Sequence record: PZ357121.2 | DNA length: 64,000 nt | Direction: 5' to 3' (one strand) | Source: a phage | Shown: positions 36,635-38,250 of the stretch, piece by piece | Numbering within the stretch: the first letter of the stretch is position 1 | Layout: each line of letters begins with the position of its first letter | Position numbers and translations under genes: made by a program | Notes under the pieces: generated by a model | Databases searched by the model: none | The model's input: the letters and a program-made list of their open reading frames with translations, nothing else | Told to the model about the DNA's origin: nothing

Positions 36635-36673
36635 ATACCTTGTCGGGGTTCCACCTGCAAGGCAAGTGTTTGT

Positions 36674-36765
36674 ACGAAACGCCGGGATTCGAACCCGGTT
36701 ATTAAGCAGTTGACGCTACTCAATATTTTTAAAAGGCCATATCTCGACCATATCCGAACGTTCCG
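36674..36765 (-). ncRNA. tRNA-like small RNA candidate (canonical T-arm and acceptor-like stem, no full cloverleaf)
   Basis: minus strand has CCGGG-TTCGAAT-CCCGG T-arm followed by CGTTTCG that can pair with CGGAACG 92 nt upstream; D and anticodon arms could not be folded by hand; in an ORF-free 290-nt gap. Confidence 0.3.
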
Positions 36766-36933
36766 TCAAAAACGCTACTCGGCTTACGGCAAAGATATTT
36801 CCTCGAATCGATAATTCTGTGCGCTGTTTCTGCTGTGATGTAAGGGGATATTAACGAATCATAAAGATTTATTAAGACCAGTCCTTACGCAGGGAACATC
36901 AGTCCGACGACTTACCGGTAGCGACCCGGCTTC

Positions 36934-37278
36934 TTATTTTGGCATATCATCAATTTGCTCTCGACGCCGACGCCATAGATTAATCGCTTCATAAACACAT
37001 TCTGCGTTTGGTATATGACGGCAATAATATAATGATTCGCGTTTCTGGAACCGATGTTGCAACGGGATTTCGTTTAAAAGGTCTTTACGGTCAAAGTATT
37101 CAAAACTAGTTAACCCAGAACGATTTTTAATGAACTTCCAATGCCCAAATTCATTTTGAACATAGATGTAATCGGCATGCTGATACAGCGAATTAATCAA
37201 TCGATGAGAAATAACTGTATCATATTCGTTAAAATAAAACGTTAAATCATGAACTACCAGATAAATATTGCCTTTCAT
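36934..37278 (-). CDS. hypothetical protein
   Basis: ORF track 36934..37329; ATG at 37278 with GAGGAAA upstream gives 114 aa, immediately 3' of tRNA-Arg. Confidence 0.45.
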   Translation of the reverse strand: MKGNIYLVVHDLTFYFNEYDTVISHRLINSLYQHADYIYVQNEFGHWKFIKNRSGLTSFEYFDRKDLLNEIPLQHRFQKRESLYYCRHIPNAECVYEAINLWRRRREQIDDMPK

Positions 37279-37296
37279 ATTTTCCTCACTTAAAGT

Positions 37297-37372
37297 TGGT
37301 GCCTCTAGAAAGATTTGAACTCTCACCATTAACCTTAGAACGATTATATGCTATCCATTACACTATAGAGGC
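37297..37372 (-). tRNA. tRNA-Arg (anticodon UCU), CCA encoded
   Basis: hand-folded cloverleaf: acceptor GCCTCTA/TAGAGGC, D-arm GTGT-AATGGATA-GCAT, anticodon stem TAATC/GGTTA with loop GTTCTAA, T-arm GAGAG-TTCAAAT-CTTTC, then ACCA. Confidence 0.8.
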
Positions 37373-38023
37373 AATTAAATTATTTACAATATCTTCTTTA
37401 TAAACTTCAGCATAATGAAGTTCATATATTTCCCATCCTAATGATTTTATAATATCATGGCGTTCTTTATAATAAGGGGCCAAAATCTTTTTCTTAGGAT
37501 TGGAGTAATGTTGGTTTCCATTAACTTCAATAATAATCTTTTTATCTATTAAAGCAATATCCGTGCAATACGCTCGGTTTTTAACCGGTTGGTATTCTTC
37601 AATAAATGAAATTCCGTTTTCTATTAATTTAGATTTCAAAAATTCACAAGGCACAGATTTAAATTTTGTATTTTTCTTCCAAGGATGTTTATCAGGGTTT
37701 TCATTCAACCATTTTTTCCGAGCATTAGATATTTTTATTCTAGATTCCTCAGAGTGTTCTCTACCTAATGAAGCGGCTGACAATTTTTGTCTAGTCTCTT
37801 CCGAAATTACTACAGGGACACCAGTCTTTTTAGATACAACATACTGGTTTAAATTACCTGAAGCTATACGTGCTTTATTCATTGCTGCAATGGCTGATTT
37901 AGAACTTTCTTTATACAATTCCAATTTAGGGTTGGATTTACACCATCTAGTGTGGTTAGCCATCCATCCTTTAGGTTTATTAGAAATATCAAATTCCATA
38001 TTACAATGTTTACAAATGCTCAT
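37358..38023 (-). CDS. putative free-standing endonuclease: N-terminal zinc finger, NUMOD3-like linker, C-terminal Vsr/DUF559-like (PD-(D/E)xK) domain
   Basis: 221 aa from ATG at 38023 (AGGAGA upstream); CKHCN...HTRWC; SEETRQKLSAASLGREHSEESRIKISNARKKW; IEVNGNQHY...ERHDIIKSLGWEIYELHY; last 5 codons overlap the 5' end of tRNA-Arg. Confidence 0.5.
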   Translation of the reverse strand: MSICKHCNMEFDISNKPKGWMANHTRWCKSNPKLELYKESSKSAIAAMNKARIASGNLNQYVVSKKTGVPVVISEETRQKLSAASLGREHSEESRIKISNARKKWLNENPDKHPWKKNTKFKSVPCEFLKSKLIENGISFIEEYQPVKNRAYCTDIALIDKKIIIEVNGNQHYSNPKKKILAPYYKERHDIIKSLGWEIYELHYAEVYKEDIVNNLIASIV

Positions 38024-38097
38024 TACCAATTATCTCCTATAAAATATAGGAGTATTTATTATTTGGATAGAGCACTTAATTTACTTCGTTTAAATTA

Positions 38098-38169
38098 CTG
38101 GCGCACTTGGACTCGAACCAAGATAAAGGAGTTAACAGCTCCCCGTAATAACCTTTATACGATGCACCA
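38098..38169 (-). tRNA. tRNA-Asn (anticodon GUU), CCA not encoded
   Basis: hand-folded: acceptor TGGTGCA/TGCGCCA (one G-U), D-loop with GG, anticodon stem GGGAG/CTCCT with loop CTGTTAA, T-arm CTTGG-TTCGAGT-CCAAG; D-stem has one mismatch. Confidence 0.6.
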
Positions 38170-38175
38170 TTTGTT

Positions 38176-38250
38176 TGGTGACCCTGGCTGGTTTCGATCC
38201 AGCTACCTATCAGTTATGAGCTGACAGCTCTCCCATTGAGCTACAGGGCC
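38176..38250 (-). tRNA. tRNA with CAU anticodon (Met, or Ile if lysidine-modified), CCA encoded
   Basis: hand-folded: acceptor GGCCCTG/CAGGGTC, D-arm GCTC-AATGGGA-GAGC, anticodon stem GTCAG/CTGAT with loop CTCATAA, T-stem GCTGG/CCAGC with atypical loop ATCGAAA, then ACCA. Confidence 0.7.

Follow-up and report, generated by a model that had tools for sequence, protein, structure and literature searches.

The window analysed here is a stretch of 64,000 nucleotides (nt) from an RB69-like T-even phage of the genus Mosigvirus (sequence record PZ357121.2), and the gene in question is an open reading frame (ORF) of 221 amino acids (aa) that lies among its tRNA genes. We read this ORF, with a probability of about 0.8, as a Vsr-like free-standing homing endonuclease gene that spreads along with the tRNA genes on its flanks. 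The reading draws on the type of enzyme, a sporadic distribution, an island of sequence identity, scars and decay products, a SegB gene in the same slot of a relative, a tRNA swap in a second genus, a regulatory module, the association of the family with tRNA genes, and purifying selection. By analogy with phage T4, the best-supported interpretation is that the ORF would be a functional counterpart of SegB and a competitor for the same slot. SegB-like behaviour and EDxHD-like enzymes are both already known kinds, and the ORF is a variant of these, not a new category.

An earlier note on this DNA, made from the letters alone, had described a 221-aa endonuclease ORF whose end overlaps tRNA-Arg, with tRNA-Asn and a CAU tRNA following within 250 nt. 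Such an ORF is present, the peptides IEVNGNQHY and ERHDIIKSLGWEIYELHY both being found in its translation, and its position was correct; the strand, which the note left unstated, is minus. The two tRNA genes are indeed nearby (at most 227 nt from the start codon), but they lie upstream in transcription, so that "follow" holds in plus-strand coordinates only.

Replacement cassette, empty allele and scars

A 2.5-kb query around the ORF matched F2, HY126, AV111 and others over its full length at 96-98% identity, whereas its matches to RB69, JS09 and HX01 were confined to two flanking pieces. JS09 and RB69 have two tRNA genes in total, tRNA(cat) and, directly behind it, a tRNA-Arg(tct) of a different allele. 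Homology of the window to JS09 stops at 37300/37301 and at 38174/38175 by alignment and BLAST, and both junctions are tRNA 3' CCA ends (those of tRNA-Arg and tRNA(cat)). The replacement cassette thus bounded (Table 1) stands in place of 75 bp of JS09/RB69, namely a spacer and the RB69-type tRNA-Arg body. It is carried by the window, HY126, F2, ZQ3, Mizar, WFK, WFL6982, AV111, PTE-Eco05, and ELT1. We found it in 10 records, or about nine distinct genomes, at 99.3% identity or more, and the empty allele in 109 Mosigvirus records (coverage of 80% or more). Presence or absence of the gene at an otherwise syntenic intergenic site was observed in Jiaodavirus and Lazarusvirus as well.

The cassette is at least 99.3% identical among genomes whose flanks have diverged, with 0-6 differences per 874 bp compared with 46 to ~150 in the adjoining 700 bp, and the ORF itself is 100% identical in F2, HY126, Mizar, and ZQ3. 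Between the window and HY126 there are 0 differences from 37302 to ~39000 and 46 in the 700 bp beyond tRNA-Arg; between the window and ELT1 there are five in 874 bp and ~150 in the adjoining 700 bp. This island of identity has a sharp edge at the tRNA-Arg 3' end, and gene and flanking markers are accordingly shared as one sharply bounded tract, the pattern of co-conversion, to which the junction within the chimeric tRNA-Arg of DCP548 also belongs.

The earlier note had counted three tRNA genes and considered endonuclease-driven turnover of them plausible. Over the 64 kb of the window ARAGORN returned exactly three, each of them on the minus strand and above the gathering score of the Rfam tRNA model (29 bits), and an Rfam search at E <= 0.1 across 35.5-39.5 kb returned these three and nothing further. 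Relatives lacking the gene differ from the window in their tRNA complement: RB69 and JS09 have two tRNA genes, the window three, ELT1 nine, and DCP548, which has an orthologue, one plus a dead chimeric tRNA-Arg; tRNA-Arg is lost in G2285, and there is none in VIPECOMC06. These differences support endonuclease-driven turnover, an idea that is not new (PMC2330249). tRNA-Asn is not present in RB69 or JS09, and tRNA(CAU) is common to relatives without the endonuclease gene. The nine tRNAs of ELT1 (Gln, Leu, Gly, Pro, Ser, Thr, CAU, Asn, and, after the ORF, Arg) form a T4 array in which a window-type ORF takes the place of T4 segB.

The tRNA-Arg carried by the cassette has a short D-arm (GTGTAATGGATAGCA), a perfect acceptor stem, and an encoded CCA. 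It is 91% identical to that of PSD2001, 73% to that of the Klebsiella phage, and 64% to that of T4, and only 49% identical to the RB69/JS09 allele that it replaces. The overlap between ORF and tRNA-Arg was confirmed: the ORF's final four codons (A-S-I-V) with their TAA stop double as 5' acceptor strand and D-arm of tRNA-Arg. An equal overlap, with the C-terminus LIASIV or LIALIV before the stop, occurs in PSD2001, DCP548, and Klebsiella phage 17-11.

Several relatives carry what look like scars of the same process. In DCP548, an orthologue (79% identical) lies upstream of a chimeric tRNA-Arg pseudogene (locus L009 2652-2727), of which the 5' two-thirds are of cassette type and the T-arm and 3' acceptor strand of RB69 type. 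The acceptor stem of this chimera is unpaired, ARAGORN finds no tRNA in it, its Rfam match is local (37.6 bits, model positions 6-65 only), and DCP548 has no functional tRNA-Arg at the locus. G2285 has a deletion corresponding to 36961-38026 of the window (locus L076 ~1273-1572), which starts inside the Shine-Dalgarno sequence and has removed the endonuclease ORF, tRNA-Arg, and most of ORF150c; its footprint is a tRNA-Asn and a promoter-like leader up to ...TATAGGA. In PTE-Eco05, a poly-A run at nt 193 of the gene (locus L077 ~1393) is longer by one A, and the +1 frameshift splits the ORF; this points either to a pseudogene or to a sequencing error in the homopolymer. VIPECOMC06 carries, directly after tRNA(CAU), a SegB orthologue (76% identical to T4 SegB; locus L004 2282-2950) whose stop codon overlaps the conserved flank and whose sequence is unrelated to the window ORF, and it is a case of a second endonuclease family competing for one slot. 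In T4, segB lies 5 nt upstream of tRNA-Arg.

Orthologues outside Mosigvirus were found by tblastn in Gaprivervirus PSD2001 (83%), Klebsiella/Enterobacter Jiaodavirus (64%), Providencia Gualtarvirus (61%), Acinetobacter Lazarusvirus (51%), and Rhizobium phages (29%), all within tRNA clusters. A TTG start at 38029 (223 aa) was considered and rejected, since every orthologue starts MSICKHC at the ATG. In Jiaodavirus, five records have the gene, and most of the 175 other matching records align over the flanks only. Roth01, which lacks it, has the order RB69-type Arg, Leu, Thr; Klebsiella phage 17-11, which has it, has the order Leu', ORF, T4-type Arg, Thr; and this exchange of tRNA-Arg alleles is the same swap as in Mosigvirus. 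In Lazarusvirus, the gene is present in 3 of ~66 as a clean insertion of 718 bp that lies immediately behind the tRNA-Asn 3' end; resident sequence again supplies the final codons and the stop, and in relatives the site is taken by other tRNAs or by a Seg-like endonuclease. Providencia phage 121 has the gene in place of two coding sequences and the tRNA-Trp of phage 127, and the junction is the tRNA-Trp 3' end.

Table 1. Features of the endonuclease locus in window coordinates.
Feature	Position	Strand	Basis or detail
Replacement cassette, 874 bp (tRNA-Asn, leader, endonuclease gene, tRNA-Arg body)	37301-38174	minus	alignment, BLAST
Endonuclease coding sequence, 221 aa (putative free-standing homing endonuclease)	37361-38023	minus	ATG at 38023; TAA 37358-37360
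C2HC zinc finger (CxxC...HxxxC), beta-beta-alpha, residues ~1-30	37934-38023	minus
Two NUMOD3-like helical repeats (SEETRQKLSAASLG / SEESRIKISNARKKW), residues ~72-103	37715-37810	minus
Vsr-like (DUF559/RAP-like) nuclease domain, C-terminal, residues ~104-221	37361-37714	minus
ORF/tRNA-Arg overlap, 15 nt	37358-37372	minus	sequence
tRNA-Arg(UCU) (tct), "T4 type"	37297-37372	minus	ARAGORN; Rfam 56.3 bits
tRNA-Asn(GUU) (gtt), within the transferred cassette	38098-38169	minus	ARAGORN; Rfam 53.6 bits
tRNA(CAU) (cat), upstream anchor of the cassette	38176-38250	minus	ARAGORN; Rfam 59.4 bits
5' leader, nested predicted hairpin	38013-38078	minus	RNAfold
AATAAATA, one-mismatch copy of T4 late promoter TATAAATA, 5' of the inner hairpin arm	38053-38060	minus

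The encoded enzyme and its relatives

The earlier note had divided the protein into an N-terminal zinc finger, a NUMOD3-like linker, and a C-terminal nuclease domain, and this architecture is supported. The zinc-finger residues C5, C8, H25, and C29 are kept in full-length homologues, and the finger is modelled as strand-strand-helix with a predicted local distance difference test score (pLDDT) of ~95; one homologue matches Pfam zf-C2H2, and a neighbour in BFVD is named "C2H2-type zinc finger". The NUMOD3-like repeats, at which the model has helices 75-85 and 92-108, are presumed to be a DNA-binding linker; the Pfam NUMOD3 score (18.9 bits) is under the cut-off of 20.4, and 7 of 35 homologues match at E <= 0.01. 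Invariant in the nuclease domain are N109, K112, H113, W115, D155, E166, N168, G169, H172, Y173, Y184, and Y185.

The Pfam scores of the window protein are marginal overall. DUF559 (PF04480) reached 21.4 bits, barely over its cut-off of 20.6 (E = 2.4e-4), and was matched by 13 of the 35 homologues at E <= 0.01; RAP (PF08373) scored 23.9 bits with the window protein, below its cut-off of 24.2, and was matched by 31 of the 35 at the same E-value. No GIY-YIG family was among the Pfam matches at E <= 1. PHROGs matches were to families of unknown function and to "homing endonuclease" families, NCBIfam had no model for the protein, and PADLOC gave one meaningless weak match, which lends no support to a defence-system reading. 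In the AlphaFold model (35 sequences, pLDDT 88), the C-terminal domain fits a Vsr-like alpha/beta fold, and I-Bth0305I scored higher than Vsr in both structural searches. The nuclease domain proposed earlier was therefore recovered, with the correction that the enzyme is nearer to the Vsr-like "EDxHD" homing endonucleases than to canonical PD-(D/E)xK ones. Against PDB sequences, a profile of the domain had just two matches, 3r3p (E = 0.02, 18.3 bits) and 3hrl (E = 0.36), a full-length profile had none at E <= 10, and a single-sequence search gave nothing relevant. The block AIEVNG is common to 3r3p and the window protein, and in the weak profile alignments D155, E166, N168 (equivalent to N208 of I-Bth0305I), and H172 fall on EDxHD/Vsr-like catalytic positions.

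The EDxHD or Vsr-like homing endonuclease family, typified by I-Bth0305I (Dassa 2009, PMC2677866; Taylor 2011, PMC3239194), has the composite catalytic motif E, D, x, H, D (Vsr positions F62->E, D51, H69, and D97) and is reported to include Hef of the T4-related phage U5 (PMC2677866, PMC3239194). As far as weak profile alignments indicate, the window protein shares with it the IEVNG block and the catalytic Asp, Glu, Asn, and His positions; it also has the reversed architecture of N-terminal NUMOD-type DNA-binding modules and a C-terminal nuclease (PMC3239194). Like the free-standing members (PMC2677866), the gene runs into its downstream neighbour at the 3' end and is predicted to have a 5' hairpin combined with a T4 late promoter. 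The similarity is, however, marginal, as the E-value of 0.02 for the domain profile and the lack of any full-length profile match indicate. The window His is one residue nearer the ExNG block, and an invariant Tyr replaces the last Asp. The window family further differs by a conserved N-terminal extension of the nuclease core (NPDKHPWK...KFKSxPCE), by a C2HC zinc finger and NUMOD3 instead of NUMOD2 or a helix-turn-helix (HTH), and by its niche, which is tRNA arrays and not introns, split inteins, and nrd genes.

An indexed search returned 131 homologues, and an exhaustive phmmer search with residues 100-221 returned 725 clusters at 50% identity, of which 538 reached E <= 1e-10. Across these 538 clusters, the nuclease core is the most conserved part (45-60% identity). 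The core motif reads ENPDKHPWK..KFKSxPCE...D155...E166-V-N-G-N-Q-H172-Y...Y184-Y185..R188...GW, and the modules fused to it vary among homologues (CxxC...HxxxC zinc finger, HTH or MerR modules, C-terminal extensions). D155, E166, N168, G169, H172, and Y185 are invariant in both a 35-member and a 30-member set of diverse homologues. The ratio of nonsynonymous to synonymous substitution rates (dN/dS) against orthologues is 0.06-0.24, and judging from it the ORF is under strong purifying selection. Because of the 131 homologues, the 725 clusters, and these dN/dS values, we do not regard the ORF as a chance one. DUF559 (PF04480), RAP (PF08373), and MTES_1575 (PF18741) are generic families without defined mobility. 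With the DUF559 protein NGO0050, the window protein aligns in the ExDG/ExNG-x-Q-H spacing and the R...GW block; unlike those three families, the window family, with 538 representatives at E <= 1e-10, groups tightly and separately, has invariant motifs of its own, and carries DNA-binding modules fused to the nuclease.

The ORF product could also be a relic without catalytic activity, or no more than a DNA-binding protein (a repressor, for instance), carried passively in this region, since tRNA arrays are recombination hot spots anyway; the replaced last catalytic Asp and the marginal Pfam scores would suit such a protein. We hold this to be very improbable, because the five catalytic-region residues D155, E166, N168, G169, and H172 together with Tyr185 are invariant in diverse homologues, and because the nuclease core is the best conserved part of a protein with such low dN/dS. 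About equally improbable is an RNA-directed, RAP-like factor that binds or cuts the polycistronic tRNA precursor and aids tRNA-Arg maturation without being a mobile DNA endonuclease, a role that the widespread RAP matches might suggest. By structure and by sequence, the protein best matches DNA endonucleases (I-Bth0305I, DUF559, and Vsr), and the N-terminal zinc finger, NUMOD3, and the HTH or MerR modules of homologues typify DNA-binding homing endonucleases. Moreover, a processing factor should track its tRNA, but the gene is present in <10% of close relatives, and the identity island and the decay products suit a selfish element.

Vsr is a stand-alone mismatch-repair endonuclease of ~155 aa with an FxHGCFWH block (zinc ligand, intercalating Phe/Trp) and works with the Dcm methylase. 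In the window protein, by contrast, the block reads IEVNGNQHY, additional domains for DNA binding are present, and tRNA genes, not a methylase gene, adjoin the ORF. That the fold should here belong to an ordinary, immobile Vsr-type mismatch-repair nickase or restriction-like nuclease is scarcely credible, given that no partner methyltransferase gene accompanies the ORF between its tRNAs, that the additional modules are of the sequence-specific DNA-binding kind, that the distribution is sporadic, that the leader is of homing endonuclease type, and that I-Bth0305I outscores Vsr.

Association with tRNA genes and predicted expression control

We examined 64 IMG/VR loci encoding homologues. tRNA genes occurred within 5 kb in 62 of them and at 300 nt or less from the ORF in 47. 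The nearest tRNA was Arg(tct) in 19 of these 47, although Arg(tct) makes up 5.8% of the 502 tRNAs in the loci. It directly adjoins the gene, on either side and on either strand, in 25 loci; by clusters, the count is 27 of 56 at 90% identity and 21 of 31 at 55%. Five further IMG/VR loci have an ORF whose 3' end runs 10-23 nt into a downstream tRNA. The literature searched gave no description of an association between this nuclease family and tRNA arrays, and the tight link to phage tRNA arrays and to tRNA-Arg(UCU) is apparently undescribed. HNH nicking endonucleases of the phage T5 tRNA region (F-TflI, II, and IV) are said to act on the tRNA genes of relatives; they resemble the present case in that endonuclease genes stand among phage tRNA genes, and differ in belonging to the HNH family.

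ARAGORN also reported a tmRNA-like gene inside one phage tRNA array and, near homologous endonuclease genes in several metagenomic phages, suppressor-type tRNAs (anticodons CTA and TCA); the loci for the two observations together are L017 4509-4839, L051 3232-3307, L068 1563-1638, L074, and L055 3741-3825.

The leader of the window gene is predicted to fold into a nested hairpin. Over 74 nt its folding free energy is -19.9 kcal/mol (z = -3.87), and none of 200 shuffled sequences was as stable (RNAfold). The predicted inner stem CUCCUAUA/UAUAGGAG (38034-38052) covers the Shine-Dalgarno sequence AGGAG (38034-38038), and the predicted outer stem pairs 38070-38078 with 38013-38021, including the G of the AUG. 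The exact late promoter TATAAATA is found at the equivalent place in PSD2001, DCP548, Klebsiella 17-11, Providencia 121, and AB-Navy97; the minus strand of the 64-kb window contains seven copies of TATAAATA and four of AATAAATA. The block GTGCTCTATCCAA-TATAAATA-CTCCTATA...TAGGAG...ATGAGCA is kept in PSD2001, DCP548, and Klebsiella, and homologues from E. coli, Klebsiella, Providencia, and Acinetobacter phages have an equivalent leader structure. Such an arrangement of late promoter and hairpin is documented for I-TevI-III, segB, and mobE (PMC2988022), and metagenomic free-standing Vsr-like and GIY-YIG genes have it too, often overlapping the downstream gene by 6-69 bp (PMC2677866). The late promoter and the hairpin hiding the ribosome-binding site, as in T-even homing endonuclease genes, are thus present here as a prediction. 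Among metagenomic homologues the exact TATAAATA was upstream in only 9 of 60 (background 1.5% per 100 nt), and the late-promoter leader is therefore a feature of a T4-like subset and not of the whole family.

Expression would probably be weak and late. On read-through transcripts the hairpin would bury both the start codon and the ribosome-binding site, and late transcripts begun at the octamer inside the hairpin would lack the 5' arms. We also speculate that maturation of tRNA-Arg by RNase P could strip the stop codon from the endonuclease mRNA, because the ORF ends inside tRNA-Arg. In many metagenomic homologues, an upstream ...TTCGAAC... can pair with ...(A/G)GTTCGAA at the ATG as a start-codon hairpin, the arms of which resemble the tRNA T-arm motif (e.g., loci L046 4900-4960, L019, L029, L048, L053, L058, and L070); it might be just a trap for the ribosome-binding site or might be linked to the target of the enzyme.

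Proposed mechanism, candidate target and likeness to SegB

SegB of T4 is a GIY-YIG free-standing homing endonuclease (Brok-Volchanskaya 2008, PMC2330249), and the tRNA turnover that it drives was shown experimentally in T4, with marker exclusion of T2L tRNA genes (PMC2330249). The window gene resembles segB in its slot between tRNA(CAU) and tRNA-Arg, in the size of its product (221 aa), and in its late-promoter and hairpin leader (PMC2988022). In both cases, as deduced here from sequence, the endonuclease gene takes its flanking tRNA genes along and the recipient loses its tRNA markers, and at one Mosigvirus site a SegB orthologue alternates with the window gene. The nuclease family is, in contrast, unrelated, without a GIY-YIG match and with the reversed domain order, and the SegB core is the T-psi-C motif GGTTCRANTCC, so that the likeness is one of position and behaviour only.

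We propose that the zinc finger and the two NUMOD3-like repeats bind DNA and that the Vsr-like nuclease (D155, E166, N168, and H172) cuts it. In a mixed infection, the enzyme would cut the tRNA region of a relative without the gene, most likely in or beside the resident RB69-type tRNA-Arg(UCU); the break would be resected and repaired from the endonuclease-bearing genome, and the repair would copy the endonuclease gene, tRNA-Asn, and the divergent, presumably uncut T4-type tRNA-Arg. Our candidate for the target here, at somewhat less than even odds, is the resident tRNA-Arg gene of RB69 type or the junction at its 5' side, because it is the sole feature present in empty and absent from occupied alleles in two genera and because the DCP548 chimera puts a crossover inside that gene.

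A bolder version is possible but doubtful. The cassette might be a "cut-and-replace" gene drive on RB69-type tRNA-Arg(UCU), installing through the 15-nt overlap both the ORF and a cleavage-resistant tRNA-Arg so that AGA decoding is never lost, and the Vsr-like family of ~700 clusters might be an engine of tRNA-Arg(UCU) and tRNA-array turnover in tailed phages, throttled by removal of the stop codon by RNase P.

Several points weigh against the homing interpretation or parts of it. Cleavage, the target site, and preferential inheritance, like the homing process and its regulation as a whole, are inferred, and the identity island proves recent recombination but not that the nuclease caused it. 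The last Asp of the EDxHD/DUF559 catalytic set aligns with invariant Y185, and the His stands four residues after the Asn and not five, one closer than in I-Bth0305I and Vsr; catalytic competence is consequently assumed from conservation. The late-promoter octamer of the window is mismatched at its first position. The enrichment of Arg(tct) among nearest tRNAs (binomial P = 4e-12) ignores relatedness among the loci, and the tRNA-Arg(UCU) genes linked to homologues in IMG/VR share no sequence type (a T4-like short D-arm was tried), so that the idea of a resistant allele rests on Mosigvirus and Jiaodavirus only. RB69-type tRNA-Arg as the target is backed in two of the four lineages compared, and the Acinetobacter insertion and the Providencia replacement mean that it cannot be generalized.

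A domesticated nuclease that benefits the phage, either by excluding co-infecting relatives or by making the tRNA array, as an anti-defence locus, recombine and amplify, with spread being secondary, is improbable, if less so than the alternatives already weighed. SegB in the equivalent slot does drive exclusion of T2L tRNA markers (PMC2330249), and the strong purifying selection on the window ORF agrees with a useful function. Such a role is, however, compatible with homing, since the same cutting activity is needed; low prevalence in every genus examined and the frameshifted and deleted copies argue against a strong general benefit, and no amplification of the locus was seen in the window.

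SegB was recently shown to amplify phage tRNA genes (PMC13096335), and phage tRNA genes are now regarded as counter-defence cargo. The present case puts a second, unrelated nuclease family in the SegB slot, where it appears to move tRNA genes between differing arrays and to leave broken tRNAs behind, and its metagenomic homologues occur almost only in tRNA arrays, about half of them adjoining tRNA-Arg(UCU). If active, the enzyme would offer a concrete mechanism for differences in tRNA repertoire between nearly identical phages, a source of natural nucleases with tRNA-gene specificity, and a testable case of homing endonucleases competing for one locus. We regard the interest as moderate; it lies in the link between the family and tRNA arrays, the cassette that brings its own tRNA-Arg, and the chimeric tRNA scar.

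The locus also exposes an annotation gap. The endonuclease ORF is unannotated in the GenBank records of HY126, F2, AV111, and Klebsiella phage 17-11, presumably because of the overlap with the tRNA gene, and the unannotated records (L001, L005, L078, and F2) show a 725-nt "empty" gap between tRNAs.

A motif scan for the SegB recognition core GGTTCRANTCC found it, among the three window tRNAs, in tRNA-Asn only. The T-arms of tRNA(CAU) (GGATCGAAACC) and of the cassette tRNA-Arg (AGTTCAAATCT) deviate from the core, as does that of the RB69-type tRNA-Arg (GGTTAGAATCC; locus L002 2200-2276), and this deviation might reflect selection to escape SegB. tRNA(CAU) has been called "Met" from its anticodon CAT, but its acceptor stem and D-arm are identical to those of T4 tRNA-Ile, and from these it is probably a lysidine-modified tRNA-Ile2 and not a methionine tRNA. 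Finally, a stretch at 36665-36939 (minus strand), which matched no Rfam family, is 91.7% identical to the T4 rnaC/rnaD region (species 1 and 2 stable RNA); it lies just downstream of ORF150c (36934-37278), and in T4 its counterpart comes directly after tRNA-Arg.

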